Shown: positions 22,821-56,064 of the stretch, piece by piece
How positions within the stretch are numbered: the stretch's first letter is position 1
Layout of the letters: every line of letters starts with the position of its first letter
Assembly: GCA_019246215.1 (NCBI GenBank)
Contig: JAFAQT010000427.1
Coordinates: forward strand, 12,882-76,881
Direction: 5' to 3'
DNA length: 64,000 bases
Origin: Verrucomicrobiota bacterium
GTDB taxonomy: Bacteria; Verrucomicrobiota; Verrucomicrobiia; Chthoniobacterales; JAFAMB01
Notes under the pieces: model-generated
Databases searched by the model: none
Told to the model about the DNA's origin: nothing
What the model saw: only the letters and a program-made list of their open reading frames with translations
Position numbers and translations under genes: made by a program

Positions 22821-24323
22821 ATGATTTCCGCATTCACGAATATCTTCAAAATTCCGGAACTGCGGCAACGCATTCTGTTTACGGTCGCTATGCTGGTCAT
22901 CGTTCGAGCCGGCGCTGCGATTACGATACCTGGAGTAAATGCTCACGTTCTGAACGAGTGGTTTCAGACCTCGCTTTCGAAATCGGCGGGAGGGGGTGTC
23001 GCTGCTCTTTTCAATATTTTTGCCGGAGGTGCGCTTGAGCATTGCGCAATTTTTTCTCTTGGGATCATGCCTTACATCAGCGCATCAATCATGATGCAGC
23101 TACTGACTGCCGTGATACCGCGTCTGAACAAGCTGGCTCGTGAAGACGGCGGCCGGCAAAAGATTACCCAATATACTCGATACGTGACTCTCGCGCTCTG
23201 TATCTTCCAGGGTTATCTGCTAGCCGTCTCTATGCAGAATCCTTCCTCCAATCCCTTTTTACAAGGGATCGAATCGGTGACGGCCCGGCTGGGGCCATTA
23301 GTTGAGAACCCCGGTCTCGGTTTTCAGATTGTTGCCACGATGACGTTGAGTGCGGGCACGATGTTCCTGATGTGGGTTGGCGACCAGATTACCGAGCGAG
23401 GGATCGGCAATGGAACGTCGTTGATCATCACCGTCGGGATCGTTGCGTCACTGCCGGGCGCTTTGGTACAGGTCTGGAACACCTTCGTGCCCACCGGTGG
23501 CGCTCCCACCCGGGTGAGTCCGATTGTGCTGGTTTTGATGATCGCATTCCTGGTTTTGGTGGTTGCATCGGTGATAGCCCTGACACAAGGACAGCGGAGG
23601 ATCAGCATTCAGTACGCCAAGCGTGTTGTTGGCCGGAAAGTCTATGGCGGCCAAACGCAATATCTGCCATTGAAGGTCAACTCTGTTGGAGTAATGCCGC
23701 TGATTTTTGCGCAGGCTATCCTGCTTTTTCCTTCCACGATTCTGAGCATGGCATTCCGAAATCAGGAATGGGCCGTAACACTTTCCAACGCCCTAGCTGT
23801 CGGGCTCTGGCATTATGTTCTGACTGGAGCCCTGATCTTTTTTTTCAGCTATTTCTGGGTTGCGATTCAATTTCAGCCGACGCAGATAGCGGATGATCTA
23901 AAAAAATATAACGGCTACATTCCTGGGTATCGGCCGGGGAAACCGACCGCGGAATTTCTCGAATATACATTGACTCGGTTGACATTTGCAGGCGCCTTCT
24001 TCCTGACGATTATCGCGGTGATCCCGGAAACCATGATCACTTGGCTGGGTGTTCCACGGATGACTGCACGCTTCTTTGGCGGCACCAGTCTCTTGATCAT
24101 TGTCGGCGTCCTCCTGGACACAATGCGGCAGGTGGAGACTTACCTCATTCAGCGGCATTACGACGGGTTCTTACGAAAAGGACGCATTCGGGGCCGCTTC
24201 GAACGCGCTGTTGGTGGAACGGGTAAAGTGGTGAAAGAGGGAGTTCTTCTATGGATGTGGGTGGCTTTCGCACTGTTAGCCGTCGCGGGCGTGGCTGTCT
24301 CAATATTTGTGAACCAGAGATAG
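22821..24323 (+). CDS. secY: Preprotein translocase subunit SecY, with a C-terminal extension containing an extra hydrophobic helix
   Basis: LRQRILFT...SLGIMPYISASIMMQLL...GGTSLLIIVGVLLDTMRQVETYL. The conserved end (HYDGFLRKGRIRGR) is followed by about 45 more residues, including VLLWMWVAFALLAVAGVAVSIFV. Confidence 0.96.
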   Translation: MISAFTNIFKIPELRQRILFTVAMLVIVRAGAAITIPGVNAHVLNEWFQTSLSKSAGGGVAALFNIFAGGALEHCAIFSLGIMPYISASIMMQLLTAVIPRLNKLAREDGGRQKITQYTRYVTLALCIFQGYLLAVSMQNPSSNPFLQGIESVTARLGPLVENPGLGFQIVATMTLSAGTMFLMWVGDQITERGIGNGTSLIITVGIVASLPGALVQVWNTFVPTGGAPTRVSPIVLVLMIAFLVLVVASVIALTQGQRRISIQYAKRVVGRKVYGGQTQYLPLKVNSVGVMPLIFAQAILLFPSTILSMAFRNQEWAVTLSNALAVGLWHYVLTGALIFFFSYFWVAIQFQPTQIADDLKKYNGYIPGYRPGKPTAEFLEYTLTRLTFAGAFFLTIIAVIPETMITWLGVPRMTARFFGGTSLLIIVGVLLDTMRQVETYLIQRHYDGFLRKGRIRGRFERAVGGTGKVVKEGVLLWMWVAFALLAVAGVAVSIFVNQR

Positions 24324-24335
24324 TGGAGAAGGGGG

Positions 24336-24943
24336 AAGAAGCGAATCGTTTTCCTAGGGCTGCCAGCTGCAGGAAAAAGGGACCCGCAGAGAATCCTTAC
24401 AGAAACGGGTCGGTATTCCAGCCGCGTCGACGAGCGATTCTTGGAGCGGAGGGAAAAAGCGGAACTTCGATGGGAATCGAGACCGCGAAGATCACTTCCA
24501 CTGGTAGCCTGACTCCGGACCAAATGGTTTTGCAGCTGTTGGCGCTTGGCTCGACAAGATGATACTCGGTTTTGTTCGATGGGTTTTCTGAAATGGTAAG
24601 GAAAAATCGAGCATTTCTAGGCCTTACTCTCCACGCGCAAGTTGGCGCTCGAACCGCGATTTCGTCGGAGCTCCCCCCGGCTGTGATCCACCAGCAGTGC
24701 TGCTAAGATTCGCATCTTCCAATTGCGGGAAAGTGATCAGCGTTCAGACGCCATATTAGAGAGGCGATTGATCCTGTCCGAACCTTCGGATCAACTGGAG
24801 GCTCGCCAGGATGATACCGGTAGCGCTTTCACGCGCCGGAGGGAGGAGTACAGGGAAAACAGTTCCGGTGACAGACTTTTATGATAGAGGAAGTATATTG
24901 GCGCGGCGTGGATGCGAGCCGTGCGGGAGAATCAGTTTTTTAA
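24336..24943 (+). pseudogene. adk: Adenylate kinase pseudogene (multiple frameshifts and stops)
   Basis: Adk-like pieces are spread over all three forward frames: KRIVFLGLPAAGK; GKGTRRESLQKRVGIPAASTSD; AILGAEGKSGTSMGIETAKITSTGSLTPDQMVLQLL, then a stop at 24560-24562; GFV-DGF; NCGKV; RQDDT; TVPVTDFY; GVDASRAGESVF. It occupies the canonical secY-adk-map position. The boundaries are approximate. Confidence 0.8.
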
Positions 24944-24967
24944 GGATGTGAGCGAGTTGATTATCGG

Positions 24968-25744
24968 ATGATCCCAATCAAGACACCGCAGGAAATTGAA
25001 AAGATGCGAGCCTCTTGCAAGCTGGCAAGTGCCATTCTTGAGAAGCTTTCTGCGATGCTCTGTCCGGGTATAACCACGAAGGATGTAGATCACTCAGGCG
25101 CGAAACTAATGGAGCAAGCGGGCTGCAAGAGCGCTTTCTTCGGTTACAGACGGTTCCCGGGTCACATCTGCATTTCTGTAAACGACGAGGTGGTTCACGG
25201 AATCGGCGGCTCCCGGCGTATTCAGTACGGGGACGTCGTGAAACTGGATATCGGCGTTGTATTGGACGGTTTCGTGGGCGACACCGCAGCCACTATTCCG
25301 ATCGGATTAGTGAGAGACGATGTGCAGCGGCTTCTGTCGGTGACCGAAGATGCGCTGAGCAAGGGGATAGAAAATGCGCGCGAAGGCCGTCGCCTGAACG
25401 AACTCTGTGCGGCGATCCAGGACGAAGTGGAATCCAATGGGTTTAGCGTGGTCAAGGAGTTTGTGGGGCATGGCGTTGGACGCCATCTTCATGAAGAACC
25501 ACAGATCCCAAATTATCGCACCCCTGGCGCTACAGCAAAATTAAGAGCGGGAATGACCCTTGCCATTGAGCCAATGGTCAATATGGGCCGCGCGGCGGTC
25601 AAAGTGCTGGACGACGATTGGACGGTTGTTACGGCTGACCATTTGCCTTCCGCACACTTTGAACACACAGTTTTGGTGACGAAAGGTGAACCAGAAATCT
25701 TGACATGGCGCGAAAAGACGTCATCGAAGTTGAGGGCAAGGTAG
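24968..25744 (+). CDS. map: Type I methionine aminopeptidase
   Basis: [11 protein letters not shown]...VVHGIG...GDVVKLDIG...DGFVGDTA...[17 protein letters not shown]...LAIEPM...EHTVLVT. Confidence 0.95.
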
Positions 25745-26587: not shown

Positions 26588-27193
26588 ATGCCCAATCAAA
26601 CTGCGACACCAACGCCGACTCCTAAAAAAGATTCCGCAGCCGCAGGTTCTACAGCGATTTCGTCTGATCCGCCGGCACCTGTGGCGCCGGCGCCAGCACC
26701 GGCCGCTGAGCCTGCCAAGCCGACACGAACTCCGAAGGCCAAGACCAAGAAGGAAAGCGGGCCGACCGAAGGCGCCAAGGTAAGTCTCTCACTGGACGGC
26801 GGTGATGCCGAAAAGCCAAAGATCGTTAAGGCGAAAGGGAGTAAGAACGTTTCTGCGGGAGTTGCGCATGTGCTCGCTACATTTAACAATACTATCGTTT
26901 CGATCACCGATCTGAACGGCAGCGTAATCGGTTGGTCCAGCGCGGGAAAAGTTGGTTTCAAGGGATCCCGCAAGAGCACTGCATACGCTGCGCAGTTAGT
27001 AGCTCAGGATGCCTGCCGGCAAGCCATGGGACACGGTCTGAAGGAAGTTGAAGTGCTGGTCAAAGGTCCTGGGGCCGGACGCGAGTCCGCGGTTCGCGCG
27101 ATTCAGGCCATCGGCCTAGATATTTCGGTGATTCGAGACGTTACACCTGTCCCGCACAACGGTTGTCGTCCCCCGAAACAGCGCCGCGTTTGA
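26588..27193 (+). CDS. rpsK: 30S ribosomal protein S11 with a Pro/Ala/Thr-rich N-terminal extension of about 70 aa
   Basis: Core: [44 protein letters not shown]...[18 protein letters not shown]. It is preceded by the low-complexity stretch TPTPTPKK...[18 protein letters not shown]. Confidence 0.94.
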
Positions 27194-27212: not shown

Positions 27213-27824
27213 ATGGCTCGTTACACTGGCCCCAAATCGAAAATCAGTCGTCGGTACGGAATCGCTCTGTTCGGTTCGAGTAAAGCACTGGAGAGGAAGA
27301 ATTATCCGCCCGGTATGCACGGTCCCAAGGGATCTCGTCGGAAGCAATCGGACTACGCAACCGCTCTCGCCGAAAAACAGAAAATGCGGCACATGTATGG
27401 TTTGTTGGAGCGGCAGTTTCGTCGTTACTTCGAAACCGCTCTGCGAAAACGCGGTGTAACCGGTGAGACCTTGCTGCAGATGCTGGAGACCAGGCTCGAT
27501 AATGTGGTCTATCGACTCGGATTTGCGAATTCGCGCGGAGCAGCTCGCCAACTGGTGTCCCACGGACATGTAACTGTGAATAATCGGAAGGTGAACGTAT
27601 CTTCTTATAATCTGAAACCGGGGGATGCGGTGGCAGTCGAGGACAGACCCGGTTCGCGGCGATTGGTCACTCGAAATCTTGAGTTGACCCAAATCCAGCC
27701 GGTGCCGGATTGGCTTGTGGTCGACAAGGACCAATTCCACGGTAAGATGATGCGAATTCCTTCCCGCGAAGAGATCGCTCCAGTGGTGAATGAGCAACTC
27801 GTCGTCGAGCTTTACTCGCGATGA
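27213..27824 (+). CDS. rpsD: 30S ribosomal protein S4
   Basis: MARYTGPKSKISRRYG...YGLLERQFRRYF...LETRLDNVVYRLGFA.SRGAARQLVSHGHV.VN. Confidence 0.97.
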   Translation: MARYTGPKSKISRRYGIALFGSSKALERKNYPPGMHGPKGSRRKQSDYATALAEKQKMRHMYGLLERQFRRYFETALRKRGVTGETLLQMLETRLDNVVYRLGFANSRGAARQLVSHGHVTVNNRKVNVSSYNLKPGDAVAVEDRPGSRRLVTRNLELTQIQPVPDWLVVDKDQFHGKMMRIPSREEIAPVVNEQLVVELYSR

Positions 27825-27872
27825 GCGCAGGGATATTTGTCAACGCCGCGTGTTGTCCGGTAGAGCTGAAAG

Positions 27873-28739
27873 TCACTTTTTGAAGATGTGGAGGAACTGC
27901 TCCTCAATCTCTGACTGAGACATCTCCAGATACGCTTCGACGGCGTCCTCGACCGCTAGCTTGCGCTCGCGGAGGAGCGATCCGAACAGACATTCGAATG
28001 GCATCAGATGCGGACGGGCCGATTCCAGCTCACGGCGAATCAGGTGGGAGAGCGGACCCGCCCCTTGATAGAAGTTCACCCTCTCGAATTCCGCGAGTAC
28101 TTCCTCGACAGCATACTCGATCCGGCGAATTTCAACTTTCCAGCGATCGCGGTCCCAAGTAATCAGTCCAAAACTCGCGCGGCGATCGCCGTCAAAAGGG
28201 AATCCTACGGCTCCAACGTTGACCAGAAGCGTAGCGTTCACCTGACGAACAAAAGGAAGGTGAGAGTGACCGACACAAAGAAGCCCGGGCGGATCGCTGC
28301 CGATCATTTCCTTGGCCTTCGCCTCCGTGGTTGTCGGGAAGAAGCCTTCGTGGTTCGATCTTGCGGAACCGTGGGCGACGGTGATCGAAAGCTTGTCCGG
28401 TCCAATCAGCGTCGTCGCAATGGGCAACTGGCTGATCGACTCCACAAAATCGCTCGTTAGATCGGCAGTCCACCGAGCGGGCATCCAATTGTAATAGTCC
28501 CTGATGTCCTGGGTTCGAGATTTCTGGCTCTGACGGATCACGTAATCTTCGTGATTCCCTCGCAAAAGGGTCCACCCCGATTGCGCGACAAATTCAGTCA
28601 CCTCGCGGGGGTTCGGTCCGCGGTTCTGAAAATCTCCGGCCACAAAGACTAAGTCCGGGTTGAGCCGGTCGATCTCTGCTGCGACTACTTCCAGAGCCGG
28701 CAGATTTCCATGGATGTCCGCGAGCACGGCGATTTGCAT
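27873..28739 (-). CDS. Calcineurin-like metallophosphoesterase
   Basis: Metal-binding motifs: VLADIHGN, VAGDFQNRG, LRGNHEDY, VGHSHLPF. Helical C-terminal tail of about 60 aa. Confidence 0.8.
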   Translation of the reverse strand: MQIAVLADIHGNLPALEVVAAEIDRLNPDLVFVAGDFQNRGPNPREVTEFVAQSGWTLLRGNHEDYVIRQSQKSRTQDIRDYYNWMPARWTADLTSDFVESISQLPIATTLIGPDKLSITVAHGSARSNHEGFFPTTTEAKAKEMIGSDPPGLLCVGHSHLPFVRQVNATLLVNVGAVGFPFDGDRRASFGLITWDRDRWKVEIRRIEYAVEEVLAEFERVNFYQGAGPLSHLIRRELESARPHLMPFECLFGSLLRERKLAVEDAVEAYLEMSQSEIEEQFLHIFKK

Positions 28740-28791
28740 CGGACGGTAGCCCTAAGCCGAAAATCTCACTGCCCACAGCGCTCGTGAAATT

Positions 28792-29886
28792 TTACCGGAG
28801 ATAACGTTCCTGGACAACTTCGAGCGCTTTACTCAGGCTCATCCTGCCTAGATAGTGAGCGAGCATCGGATCGGCATCCGGCGGCAACCTAGTCCGTAGT
28901 TCTTCGATTCGTTGAGAGGCCTGCTTCAATCTTTCCAAGTGAGCGTCTGGATTCTGGTCTCGAAACGGATGATCGCCTATGACGGCGAGCCGATCCCGCA
29001 AAGCCTCCGCAAGTACAACGTAGTACTGATCCATGCATCCAAAGTGTCGCCTGGACCTGTTCGCATTCAAGAGGGTTTTCCAAGAGACTGGCCGTCGACG
29101 GGGAAGCAATTGGCTCGATTGAGGAAGAACTAGTCTGAACTGTTCTGCGCTAAGCTCCCGCAGCAACTGTTCCAACGCCTCAAGACAGACCGTTGGCCGG
29201 TGGGCTTCGTGAAATAAAATGATAGCGCCGGAGACAATCGATCGCTTGATGCGTTCAACAATTCTTTTGGGATCATCGATCTGAGTGTCAAATGCCCTCG
29301 CGCTCCAGCCGACTAATTGAAGACCCCGCGCTGCCAGAATCGGATGAAGGAACGGATTTTTCAATCCGGCTGGTGCTCGAAACCAGATCGGCGCGGCCAC
29401 CCCAATCGAAGCGATTGTGGCTTCAAAGCCGTCGATTTCCCGCGCAAGAGCTCTCGGACCGAACCGCCAGAAACTGAATCTTGGATGGGTCTGAGTGTGA
29501 TTACCAATCGTGTGGCCCGCATGGAGGATCATGCGGGTCAGTTCTGGATGTCTGGCCGCTTTTGCACCGATCAAAAAAAAGGTCGCCCGAGCGCCGTATT
29601 TTTCCAGCAAGCCAAGAATTTGCGGGGTTGTGTCTGGGTCCGGTCCATCGTCAATGGTCAGCCACGCTGTTTTCGTGGTTGTGGAATACTTGGTTAGGAC
29701 TGGTCCGAACCCTTGAAGCGATGGGATCGTGGTAACCGCCACCAGCAACAAATGAGAGGCGAACAAAATGGATAGTCCCCAGAGCCACCCGACCGCCAAC
29801 ATGAAGAACGTCAGGAACGGTGCTAACACGATAAACCAGATTGTTACGGTCGGGCGAAAGCGCACTGGGCAAAAAAACAGCAGCAA
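28792..29886 (-). CDS. Membrane-anchored polysaccharide deacetylase (NodB/CE4 domain) with an uncharacterised C-terminal helical domain
   Basis: Two N-terminal hydrophobic helices. NodB motifs TIDDGPDP, ATFFLIG and HTIGNHTQTHP. The last ~90 aa (MDQYYVVLAEALRDRL...) have no family I recognise. Confidence 0.75.
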   Translation of the reverse strand: MLLFFCPVRFRPTVTIWFIVLAPFLTFFMLAVGWLWGLSILFASHLLLVAVTTIPSLQGFGPVLTKYSTTTKTAWLTIDDGPDPDTTPQILGLLEKYGARATFFLIGAKAARHPELTRMILHAGHTIGNHTQTHPRFSFWRFGPRALAREIDGFEATIASIGVAAPIWFRAPAGLKNPFLHPILAARGLQLVGWSARAFDTQIDDPKRIVERIKRSIVSGAIILFHEAHRPTVCLEALEQLLRELSAEQFRLVLPQSSQLLPRRRPVSWKTLLNANRSRRHFGCMDQYYVVLAEALRDRLAVIGDHPFRDQNPDAHLERLKQASQRIEELRTRLPPDADPMLAHYLGRMSLSKALEVVQERYLR

Positions 29887-52658: not shown

Positions 52659-54655
52659 CCACAAAAAAGACCGATTTAGAACGGTTACAAACCGTTGTCA
52701 TAGAAAATCTTGAGCCTTGCATCGACGCAGGGCGTTATCCCATTAAGAGGGTTATTGGCCAAGAGCTGAACGTTTCAGCCGACATTTTCAAGGATGGTCA
52801 TGATCAGCTTTCGGCTAATCTCAAATGGCGAAAGGCAACCAGTACAGATTGGAACCGGACACCGATGAAGCCGACCGAAAATGACCGATGGGAAGGCGTT
52901 TGTCATTTCATCGAAAATGCGCCCCACGAATACACCATTGAGGCTTGGGAGGATCACTTCAAATCGTGGCAGGTCGAATATGCCAAGAAGTACGGCGCCG
53001 GGAACACGGACCTCAGAACTGAACTCGAGGAAGGCGCGATTCTCGTGGCAAAGGCTGCTGAACGTGCTAGGCGCAAAGACGACCAGAAACGTTTAGCGCT
53101 CTTTTCGCAGCAACTGAAAAATGCAGATGCTCATTTTGGTGCCCAATTGGCTAAAAATCCTGAATTGACGGGATTAATGGGTGCGTGGCCCGATCTCGAT
53201 CTGAGCACGGAACTGCGCCCTTATCTTCGAGTGACCGTGGATCGCTCGGAAGCGCTCTTTGCGGCCTGGTACGAATTTTTCCCGCGCTCTGCAGACGGTA
53301 AGCCGAATACCGGGTCGAAGTTTCGCGATTGCCTAGGCCGAATCGACGATGCAAAAGCGATGGGTTTCGATGTTATCTATTTTCCTCCGATTCATCCGAT
53401 CGGATTTACGAAGCGAAAAGGGAAAAATAATTCTACCACCAGTGAACCGGGCGATCCCGGTGTCCCCTACGCAATCGGCAGCCAGTTTGGTGGCCACAAA
53501 GCTGTAGAACCAGAACTCGGCACGTTGGACGATTTTGATTGGCTCGTGGATGAGGTGCACGCAAGAGGGATGGAAATTGCGCTAGATTTTGCGATCAACT
53601 GTTCTCCGGACCATCCTTATGTTAAAGAGCATCCTGACTGGTTTTTTCATCGTCCAGACGGATCCATCAAATATGCTGAAAATCCGCCCAAAAAGTATGA
53701 GGATGTTTATCCGCTGAATTTCTATAATCCTGACTGGAAGAATCTCTGGGAGGAAATGAAGGAGGTGATTCTTTTCTGGGTACGCCACGGAGTTCGCATT
53801 TTCCGCGTGGACAATCCGCATACCAAACCGAACTCTTTTTGGGAATGGATGATATCGGAAGTCCAGAGGGATTATCCGGATGTGATTTTTCTGGCGGAAG
53901 CCTTCACGCGGCCCAAGATGATGAAGGCGCTAGCGAAGGGAGGGTTTACACAATCTTACACCTACTTCACATGGCGAAATACCAAATGGGAACTGAGTGA
54001 GTACCTCTCTGAACTTACTCAGACAGAAATGAAGTATTACTTCCGCGCGAACTTTTTTCCGAATACACCGGATATTTTGCCGTTCTTCTTGCAGACGGGC
54101 GGCCGCCCTGCTTTTTTGATTCGCGCCGTTCTTGCTGCGACGTTGAGCACTGTGTATGGCATCTACAGCGGGTTTGAGCTATGTGAAAATGTCGCGGTTT
54201 CGGGCAAAGAAGAATATCTCAATTCGGAAAAATACCAGTTCAAAGAACGGGATTGGAATGCACCCGGCAATATCAAAGATTACATCGCAAAGCTAAACGC
54301 GATTCGGCGTGCTAACCGCGCGATGCACGAATACGAGAATCTCCGATTCCATACCGTCGAAAACGAACACATATTATTCTACTCCAAGGCGACAGAAGCC
54401 CTCGACAACATCATCCTGGTTCTGGTCAGTGTCGATCCGTTCAATCCGCAGAGCGGATTTGCCTATGTCCCGGTGGAAAATTTCCAGATCGACGTCGCGG
54501 ATTCATACCAGGTCGAGGATCTGATAACGGGCGAGAAATTCACTTGGCGCGGGCGCCGGAATTTCGTGATGCTCGATCCAAATTCTCGTCCTGCACATAT
54601 CTTTCGCATCCGGCGTCTGATCGGGATGGATGGAGCGCAAATGATCTTCGCATGA
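52655..54655 (+). CDS. glgE: Alpha-1,4-glucan:maltose-1-phosphate maltosyltransferase
   Basis: GlgE N-terminal domain: IDAGRYPIKRVIGQELNVSADIFKDGHDQLSANLKWRK. GH13 core: IYFPPIHPIG...GSQFGGH...LGTLDDFDWLV...GMEIALDFA...HPDWF...FRVDNPHTKP..FWEW...FLAEAFTRP. Confidence 0.85.
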   Translation: MTTKKTDLERLQTVVIENLEPCIDAGRYPIKRVIGQELNVSADIFKDGHDQLSANLKWRKATSTDWNRTPMKPTENDRWEGVCHFIENAPHEYTIEAWEDHFKSWQVEYAKKYGAGNTDLRTELEEGAILVAKAAERARRKDDQKRLALFSQQLKNADAHFGAQLAKNPELTGLMGAWPDLDLSTELRPYLRVTVDRSEALFAAWYEFFPRSADGKPNTGSKFRDCLGRIDDAKAMGFDVIYFPPIHPIGFTKRKGKNNSTTSEPGDPGVPYAIGSQFGGHKAVEPELGTLDDFDWLVDEVHARGMEIALDFAINCSPDHPYVKEHPDWFFHRPDGSIKYAENPPKKYEDVYPLNFYNPDWKNLWEEMKEVILFWVRHGVRIFRVDNPHTKPNSFWEWMISEVQRDYPDVIFLAEAFTRPKMMKALAKGGFTQSYTYFTWRNTKWELSEYLSELTQTEMKYYFRANFFPNTPDILPFFLQTGGRPAFLIRAVLAATLSTVYGIYSGFELCENVAVSGKEEYLNSEKYQFKERDWNAPGNIKDYIAKLNAIRRANRAMHEYENLRFHTVENEHILFYSKATEALDNIILVLVSVDPFNPQSGFAYVPVENFQIDVADSYQVEDLITGEKFTWRGRRNFVMLDPNSRPAHIFRIRRLIGMDGAQMIFA

Positions 54656-56064
54656 GAAAGGCTGTCTGGTTCGGGATTTTTGTTGCGGCATTCCTGTTTG
54701 GGTGTGGCCAGTCCAAAGAACAGGCGATTCAGGAATTGGAGAGATTGAACCTGAAATTTGCGCCAGATGATTTTGTGCAGTCGGCGGAAAAAGGGGATGT
54801 CAAGGCGATCCAACTCTTTTTGAATGCGGGTATCGACTGCGATGTTCAAAACGCCACGGGGTCTACGGCTCTAATGGCCGCTGCAAAAAATGGGCGAATC
54901 GAAGTGGTGAAGAAGTTGCTGGACCAGAAAGTGGATGTGAATGCCGTGGGTAAACAGGGAGTAACTGCTCTCATGCTGGCGGCGCAGAATAATCAAGTCG
55001 AGATCGTTAAGCTGCTTTTGAAAAAGAATGCGGATCCGAATGTGGAGGACCAAACCGGATGGTCGGCTCTGATGAAGGCCGTCTACCAAGGAAACACAGA
55101 TTGCGTAGCAGCTCTCGCCGCACGGTCGCGGCAGGAAGTGAATCGAGGATTGCTCATCGCCGCATTGACCGGGCATAAAGAGATCGCGAAGATCTTGCTC
55201 GACAATGGAGCCGAGATAGACACCCGAGCGGATGACGGACGGACTCCTTTGATGCTCGCGGCGGGCAAGGGTGACAACGATCTTGTGTCGTTTCTGTTGC
55301 AGGCCGGCGCCGATCCAACCCGCACTGATAAATCCGGTGCGACTGCAAGTTCCCTGGCGATCGCAAAGGGTTATAAAGTAATAGCAGATCGGTTAGAGAA
55401 GGCGCCGGTACCGCCGAGCGTCAATGCTTCCCCTTCAAATGCAGTCGCAACCCGCAATAGTTCGAAGCCAACTGGGGTAATGTCAGATCAGGATCTCCTC
55501 TCTCAACCGGAAGAAAGAAAGAGTTCTGTTTCCGATTCTCGCCGGACCGCTAACCCGGGAAACTCTGCCAAGGTGCCGGGCGATTCTGTTCAGACCAAAC
55601 CTGCTACCGTTATGGAGATCGAGCAGGAGTTTCTCCCGGTGAAACTCACCGAGGTCAACGGGAAAAAGGCAATGATTCAAGCTGCTGACGGAGAAAAATA
55701 CAGCGTTGCGATCGGAGACCAGTTGAAGGGTCTGGATTATAAGGTGACCGATGTTGTCATGCGCAGCACGGAAGACAAAGATGGCAATCCAGTGGATGAC
55801 TCCATCGTCAAGCTGCGAAATACGAAATCTGGGCAGTCTGTTGCGCTCATCAAAGGCGTGCCTGCACAGGAACACGCTGCGTACGCGATACTCGCTTTTC
55901 CTGGCTCTGATCAGACGCTAAAAATTGAAGTGGACCAAACTTTCTCGATTCCTGGGGATCCCGGTCACACCTACATAGTTTTGGATATTCGCCCGACACA
56001 GGTCATCATCCGGCGGATCGAGGACAATCGCGTCTCCACGCTGGAAAAAAAATCTCATAGCTGA
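54652..56064 (+). CDS. Ankyrin-repeat lipoprotein with a C-terminal beta-rich domain
   Basis: The ATG overlaps the glgE stop (ATGA). Signal/lipobox: MRKAVWFGIFVAAFLFGCG. About six or seven ankyrin repeats (e.g. GSTALMAAAKNGRIEVVKKLLDQKVDVN, GVTALMLAAQNNQVEIVKLLLKKNADPN, GRTPLMLAAGKGDNDLVSFLLQAGADP). These are followed by a Ser/Pro linker and a ~150-aa domain. Confidence 0.8.
   Translation: MRKAVWFGIFVAAFLFGCGQSKEQAIQELERLNLKFAPDDFVQSAEKGDVKAIQLFLNAGIDCDVQNATGSTALMAAAKNGRIEVVKKLLDQKVDVNAVGKQGVTALMLAAQNNQVEIVKLLLKKNADPNVEDQTGWSALMKAVYQGNTDCVAALAARSRQEVNRGLLIAALTGHKEIAKILLDNGAEIDTRADDGRTPLMLAAGKGDNDLVSFLLQAGADPTRTDKSGATASSLAIAKGYKVIADRLEKAPVPPSVNASPSNAVATRNSSKPTGVMSDQDLLSQPEERKSSVSDSRRTANPGNSAKVPGDSVQTKPATVMEIEQEFLPVKLTEVNGKKAMIQAADGEKYSVAIGDQLKGLDYKVTDVVMRSTEDKDGNPVDDSIVKLRNTKSGQSVALIKGVPAQEHAAYAILAFPGSDQTLKIEVDQTFSIPGDPGHTYIVLDIRPTQVIIRRIEDNRVSTLEKKSHS

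Follow-up and report, generated by a model that had tools for sequence, protein, structure and literature searches.

The adenylate kinase gene of the secY-adk-map slot has decayed to a multi-frameshift relic in a soil Verrucomicrobia lineage

In this work, we describe the decay of the adenylate kinase gene (adk) located between secY and map in a 64,000-nucleotide stretch of Verrucomicrobiota DNA, which we call the window. The original prediction, that adk has decayed in this conserved slot to a relic with several frameshifts, is borne out by full-length homology combined with wrecked reading frames. We regard the interval as a true, non-functional pseudogene of the ancestral slot adk, and the slot copy as having very probably become dispensable through another gene for an AMP kinase; this combined reading is held with high confidence.

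The secY stop codon occupies 24321-24323 and the map ATG begins at 24968, which leaves 644 bp between the two genes. According to the ORF list the interval has no ORF of its own above 103 aa, so the long-ORF-free gap described at the outset is real, and gene callers used on the public assemblies leave a hole of the same 644 bp. The Adk-like peptides on which the prediction was built were all found by translation, spread over the three forward frames. At its 3' end the relic keeps the ancestral TGA overlapping the map ATG (ATGA), and the same overlap of adk stop and map start is present in the examined relatives with intact adk (L007-L010, L086, L087). The region surrounding the relic contains more than 20 genes called as complete. 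Coordinates of the slot and of the lesions are given in Table 1.

Table 1. Features of the secY-adk-map slot and lesions of the adk relic (window coordinates)
Feature	Position	Strand	Basis
secY, intact, 500 aa, upstream border of the slot	22821..24323	+	ORF list
Relic (pseudogene) of adk, collinear with the complete 214-codon gene in relatives	24333..24971	+	DNA and frameshift-aware alignments, Pfam
Former start codon, GGG in place of the GTG shared by all intact relatives	24333..24335	+	alignment
A5 run, +1 insertion in the P-loop codons (GKGT)	24374..24378	+	alignments
Other 12 indels relative to L086/L087	24431..24936 (span)	+	MAFFT alignment, indel list
TGA stop ending the frame followed in the original prediction	24560-24562	+	translation
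TAG stop within the repaired frame	24618..24620	+	frameshift-aware alignment
map (methionine aminopeptidase), intact, 258 aa, downstream border of the slot	24968..25744	+	ORF list

Some features of the surrounding genes are recorded here as separate observations. SecY carries a C-terminal extension of ~40 aa with an extra hydrophobic stretch, VLLWMWVAFALLAVAGVAVSIFV, encoded at the 3' end of the gene (24180-24320), and loci of other phyla align to this 500-aa protein only up to about residue 459. The longest infA ORF begins 40 nt within the 3' end of map (25705-25744), an overlap called in public assemblies as well, and the true infA start may lie further downstream. Ribosomal protein S11 (26588-27193, + strand) is 201 aa long with a Pro/Ala/Thr-rich N-terminal extension of ~70 aa; its start differs among gene callers, giving 133 aa in L001 and L003 and 201 aa in L002 and L004. 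Downstream of rpsD (27213-29886) convergent genes of a metallophosphoesterase and a polysaccharide deacetylase are found, and rpoA and rplQ are absent from their usual place there. The window also encodes a 506-aa protein consisting largely of ankyrin repeats (54544-56064, + strand) and contains a 720-aa ORF without a Pfam match (73-2235, + strand).

Derivation of the interval from adk was established by protein and DNA comparisons. When intact Adk proteins of relatives were searched against the 64-kb window with tblastn, matches appeared solely at 24345-24906, in frames +1, +2 and +3, with E about 1e-8. A translation stitched by hand scored 58.4 bits against the Pfam ADK profile PF00406 (E 1.2e-15; profile positions 2-148 of 151; gathering score 26.8), so that the Adk similarity expected of the window is detected by the profile and by tblastn alike. 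The stitching was guided by prior knowledge of Adk, which biases this score, and a frameshift-tolerant protein-to-DNA alignment was therefore added as an unbiased test. With the best references the relic scored 446-499 (446 with P0018, 494 with P0017). One hundred dinucleotide shuffles averaged 38.4 ± 5.7 and never exceeded 59, the reverse complement reached 32, and none of 20 other pieces of the window scored above 61. This alignment spans residues 2-212, and after repair of every shift 134 of 204 residues (65.7%) are identical to P0017. Similarity to the family (PF00406 / TIGR01351) is significant across the whole domain. In DNA the relic is collinear with the intact adk of L007, L008, L009, L010, L086 and L087; comparison of the secY-map interval among related genomes places an intact adk at the slot of close relatives, aligned along the whole relic.

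The start-codon region is aligned as GGGGTGAAGAAG in L086 and GGGGGGAAGAAG in the window, and the change to GGG is found in the L003/L004 haplotype too. The body of the gene is interrupted by 13 indels of 1-2 nt each, with a net length change of −6 nt: +1 at 24374, −2 after 24431, −1 after 24544, −2 after 24560, +1 at 24598, −1 after 24655, −1 after 24697, +1 at 24743, −1 after 24774, −1 after 24792, −2 after 24854, +1 at 24904 and +1 at 24936. The frameshift-aware protein alignment independently needed 13 shifts. An earlier count of at least four frame changes plus stops was right in that both kinds of lesion exist, but it proved a large underestimate in view of the 13 indels and the lost start. 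The A5 run had been placed at 24362-24366; it actually lies at 24374-24378. This run is polymorphic, with five A in the window, L001 and L002 and four in L003 and L004, and in the window haplotype its +1 splits the P-loop GxPGxGKGT.

The gene would be dead even without its frameshifts, because after repair 25 of the 69 columns conserved to at least 98% in 120 intact homologues are altered, catalytic residues included. The changes comprise R38G, P87S/R88E/T89M (PRT to SEM), R123A, C130S and G155D, and C153 is lost at a frameshift. The relic retains the RxDD arginine and the arginine that follows it; as catalytic arginines we take those corresponding to E. coli R36, R88, R123, R156 and R167. In the four-cysteine lid (CxxC...CxxC), invariant at all four positions in 33 aligned intact homologues, two cysteines are gone. 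Neither an uninterrupted ORF of ~214 codons with a start codon, nor the complete set of P-loop and catalytic arginines, nor the four-cysteine lid is found in the relic, and judged from its sequence adenylate kinase activity would not be expected of it. As the start codon and invariant residues are missing, no read-level correction could restore the ORF.

The nearest named relatives of the window are soil MAGs of Chthoniobacterales (Verrucomicrobiota). Relatives with SecY 80-97% identical to that of the window (L007-L010, L086, L087, L089, L090, L093) carry an intact slot adk of 212-214 codons with a GTG start and a stop overlapping the map ATG. Within the genus-level clade of the window adk is intact in L086, L087 and L007 (SecY 94-97% identical), and the closest intact copies are those of L086 and L087, two loci with 87% DNA identity in secY. 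These intact genes are under purifying selection, with dN/dS of 0.08-0.15 (0.11-0.15 for L086, L087 and L007) against 0.01-0.02 for secY. The ratio of adk dN to secY dN is 5-7 among relatives of the window and 2-8 in other phyla; relaxed selection on the relatives' intact slot adk, which would be an indirect sign of redundancy, is therefore not seen. Slot Adks of Chthoniobacterales (P0017, P0001, P0018, L008, L015, L025) pass TIGR01351 with 185-199 bits (cut-off 168). The same proteins fall below every NCBIfam adenylate-kinase equivalog cut-off (e.g., NF001380, 186-200 against 251) and are thus somewhat divergent, which would fit the generic label "nucleoside monophosphate kinase" in NCBI records. 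A structure model of the intact P0017 has a pLDDT of 89. Between the repaired relic and L086 we obtained dN 0.207 and dS 0.854, a ratio of 0.24, compared with 0.15 for the intact pair L087-L086. A two-branch model gives the crude estimate that the relic has been decaying for roughly 20-30% of the time elapsed after its lineage and that of L086 parted, which puts the onset of decay, equally crudely, well before the separation of the haplotypes described below.

A SecY protein identical to that of the window is encoded on five public contigs, belonging to two NCBI MAGs, two ENA assemblies and one Logan contig, and the relic recurs in four other public assemblies (NCBI, ENA) as two haplotypes. 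The relic of L001 equals that of the window, and L002 differs from it by one base. The haplotype of L003 and L004 is without the +1 in the A-run and has +2 (CC) rather than +1 at 24598, so that two indel sites differ, while the other 11 indels and the loss of the start codon are common to both. The secY gene differs from its copies in L001-L004 by 3-6 substitutions, all in third codon positions and none changing the protein. Over 644 bp the relic shows 21 substitutions between the haplotypes (3.26%), distributed over codon phases as 7/6/8, plus two indels; the 18 flanking genes, about 10.1 kb in total, are free of indels and carry 46 substitutions (0.46%), of which 78% affect third positions. 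The relic, with a divergence ~7 times that of the flanking genes, is the fastest-evolving segment of the region. It drifts without coding constraint, and its inactivation is older than the split of the two sampled haplotypes.

Two short ORFs of the region were considered as possible new genes and rejected. One (24251-24562, 103 aa) begins within secY, out of frame with that gene, and crosses the polymorphic A-run, so that the haplotypes do not have it in common. The other ends at the map ATG, and in L003 a C to T change at 24915 creates a stop right after its own ATG.

Large deletions have destroyed the slot copy in two sister lineages as well, each time independently. In L088 (SecY 94.8% identical) the slot measures 151 bp and holds the last (3') quarter of adk, in which there are additional small indels; this remnant scores 128 in the frameshift-aware alignment, against a null maximum of 34. 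In L006 (SecY 96.6%) 34 bp are left, which keep about the first 25 nt of adk including the GTG. In a neighbour-joining tree of rpsE-rplO-secY (2292 columns, 500 bootstraps) the intact L007 and the stump-bearing L088 were grouped with 100% support, as were the window, the intact L086 and the empty L006. Inside the latter group the window joined L086 in 60% of replicates, L006 joined L086 in 40%, and the window and L006 were never paired (0/500). Since the bootstrapped tree separates them, the three losses are independent within one genus-level clade; the lesions are structurally different as well. From this repeated loss it follows that the slot copy is expendable in this clade. It can be added as an observation on L006 (4967-5003) that the deletion junction turned the start codon of map into GTG.

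Among loci of related Verrucomicrobiae with SecY 60-75% identical to that of the window, 26 have a slot adk and 21 an empty slot. When other empty slots (including L011, L012, L014, L017, L021, L094, L096, L099 and L101) were tested for adk remnants, 11 of the 12 scored intervals stayed within the range of shuffled sequences, L096 exceeded it by a small margin (42, where shuffles reached 36 at most), and four further slots were too short to score. Separately, in four Opitutia loci (L052, L056, L066, L067) a slot of ~600-630 bp holds a gene of ~200 aa, 28-35% identical to Adk over ~110 residues, which may be a very divergent or short-type Adk.

A second adk was looked for at several levels. Tblastn with five Adk proteins gave only chance-level matches in the 64-kb window outside 24345-24906, and no ADK, PPK2 or other nucleoside monophosphate kinase was revealed when 40 ORFs located away from the ribosomal cluster (38 distinct ones, two of them scanned twice) were run against Pfam. 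No second adk was found among 167 related loci (1.16 Mb), and the five further Adk proteins seen in context (P0017, P0044, P0195, P0170, P0352) all occupy the slot. Searches of protein databases for a Verrucomicrobia Adk family outside the slot found none, the three representatives seen in context all lying between secY and map. Eukaryote-like proteins with several domains and single-domain Adks without a label made up most of what the search of 50% representatives returned; a tree of these together with labelled slot Adks was star-like, and a profile search with 31 unlabelled representatives retrieved mostly tandem double-Adk proteins of Anaerolineae. In the literature we found no paper joining Chthoniobacterales with adenylate kinase and nothing relevant on adk pseudogenes.

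Some unusual Adk proteins came up in these searches and are listed for their own interest. P0155 and P0349 (297 aa; Logan and ENA contigs) match both Pfam ADK (PF00406) and eIF-1a/InfA (PF01176) and, by their domain content, look like an Adk-InfA fusion, in which case map would be missing between adk and infA in that lineage. The sets P0271-P0320 and P0121-P0141 include proteins with two Adk units in tandem, about 467-494 aa long; where a source is named, which is so for few of them, it is Anaerolineae, Thermoflexales or Alphaproteobacteria. Multi-Adk repeat proteins of up to about 2700 aa head the representative search.

Two other readings of the broken frames have to be considered, namely that adk is really intact and the shifts are homopolymer or consensus errors, and that a working kinase is still made from the interval through programmed frameshifting, transcriptional slippage or other recoding. 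Errors of sequencing or assembly might be suspected, as the source sequences are metagenome assemblies and some of the indels fall in short runs (the A5 run and T6 at 24936-24941). Most indels lie outside homopolymers, however, with −2 deletions called four in number, and the same lesions repeat in four other assemblies, most of them in both haplotypes. The mutated start codon and the 25 near-invariant residues substituted after frame repair, catalytic ones among them, are unlike sequencing errors, and the neighbouring genes are intact and nearly invariant, without a single indel in the 18 that were tabulated. A truly error-ridden locus has a different appearance: at L043 (2944-4960; Acidobacteriota long-read MAG CAVQAH010000024.1) secY itself is spread over three frames and adk over two, which looks like indel errors of a long-read assembly. 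The view taken from the start that poor assembly is unlikely to be responsible is upheld, and we consider an artefact extremely improbable. The chance of recoding we regard as negligible. Several A and T runs are indeed present at shift points, but 13 events would be needed, including −2 shifts at non-repetitive sites, in a gene that has no start codon and whose repaired frame still contains stops. A gene read by programmed frameshifting has a single shift or two, located at slippery sites that are conserved, and relatives preserve both of its frames; here the shift sites vary between haplotypes, are absent from relatives and are mostly non-slippery. The even spread of substitutions across codon phases, the loss of the catalytic R38, R88 and R123 together with two lid cysteines, and the outright deletion of the gene in sister lineages also speak against a product.

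If the relic is a pseudogene, it could still be kept as a spacer or expression element for map-infA, for example by providing an internal promoter, a site for RNA processing or the sequence at which map translation is initiated. The length is nearly unchanged (647 vs 653-659 bp), the last ~35 nt before the map ATG are close to those of L086, and the 3' 150 bp are retained in L088. Against this stand the loss in L006 of all but ~25 nt of the 5' end and the relic's place as the fastest-evolving segment; moreover, no RNA gene was found in the relic, with no Rfam match, no sigma-70-like promoter and no terminator above shuffle expectation. A retained role of this kind is unlikely, and any role for map would be limited at most to the last few dozen bases. 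The near-full length despite 13 indels is compatible with youth of the relic, and may also reflect a mild spacing constraint. A different alternative accepts the pseudogene and supposes that there is no second adk; phosphorylation of AMP in the species of the window, as in the lineages of L006 and L088, would then take another route, through an enzyme such as polyphosphate:AMP phosphotransferase (PPK2 class II/III), pyruvate phosphate dikinase or a nucleoside monophosphate kinase of another family. It agrees with the absence of a second adk from the window and from the 1.16 Mb of related loci, and with the slot position of all five Adk relatives seen in context. The unrelaxed constraint on the relatives' slot adk also argues in its favour, being a little awkward for long-standing redundancy, of which it is not what one expects. 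The genome must, however, be far larger than the 64 kb searched, so that this absence means little, and neither PPK2 nor another candidate was detected in the window. To our knowledge adk is near-universal and essential in free-living bacteria, and spc operons without it, as in E. coli, where adk is encoded elsewhere, are accompanied by a copy outside the operon. About half of the sampled related Verrucomicrobiae loci have an empty slot, which likewise disfavours an adk-free state. We therefore judge this route quite improbable. Its strictest form, in which some species of the genus are without the classical adenylate kinase family, the sole copy having been lost three times, and a different enzyme handles AMP, is a long shot; polyphosphate-dependent AMP phosphotransferase or an unrecognised kinase, for example, may be the enzyme in such species.

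Redundancy with a second AMP kinase gene elsewhere in the genome is the likeliest explanation of the loss. Another gene, most simply a second adk, would convert AMP to ADP and make the slot copy dispensable; the relic would have no function of its own and would persist until a large deletion removes it.

The locus offers a clean and well-controlled example of a pseudogene within the most conserved gene cluster of bacteria, and a useful note for annotation. One genus-level clade of abundant soil Verrucomicrobia displays all three stages, from the intact gene through a full-length relic to a stump or a clean deletion, and the repeated loss points to a second source of adenylate kinase activity in the clade. 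Should a second adk exist, as expected, the case is one of ordinary evolution by gene displacement; should whole genomes prove to be without adk, the indispensability of this gene in free-living bacteria would be overturned.

Among known systems, the closest is the secY-adk-map arrangement of the Bacillus subtilis type (spc/alpha cluster), with which the relic shares position, orientation and the ancestral stop over the map start. The ancestral four-cysteine lid of the relic resembles the zinc-binding lid of B. subtilis Adk, and the similarity covers the whole Adk fold. Intact orthologues of this type are present in L007-L010, L086 and L087 and in most loci of other phyla; unlike them, the window copy is dead, having lost its start codon and catalytic residues and acquired 13 indels and in-frame stops. 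A second comparison is with genomes in which secY and map are adjacent and adk lies elsewhere, an arrangement generally known from E. coli; the loci of C. flavus Ellin428, Prosthecobacter, Akkermansia and Methylacidiphilales show the adjacent pair too, with adk presumably at another place in these genomes. Loss in the genus-level clade of the window leads to this same endpoint, at which L006 with its 34 bp and L088 with its 151 bp have arrived, and the window is on the way. The older empty slots of those genomes hold no clear trace of adk, whereas in the window the whole gene body is still readable, and the loss is therefore caught in progress. With ordinary pseudogenes of redundant genes the relic has in common small indels, indel polymorphism at the strain level, deletion in relatives and drift at or above the rate of flanking third codon positions. 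It differs from them in that the gene is normally single-copy and essential and lies within one of the most conserved clusters of bacteria. As a bacterial pseudogene the relic is typical; its unusual side lies in which gene was hit and where.
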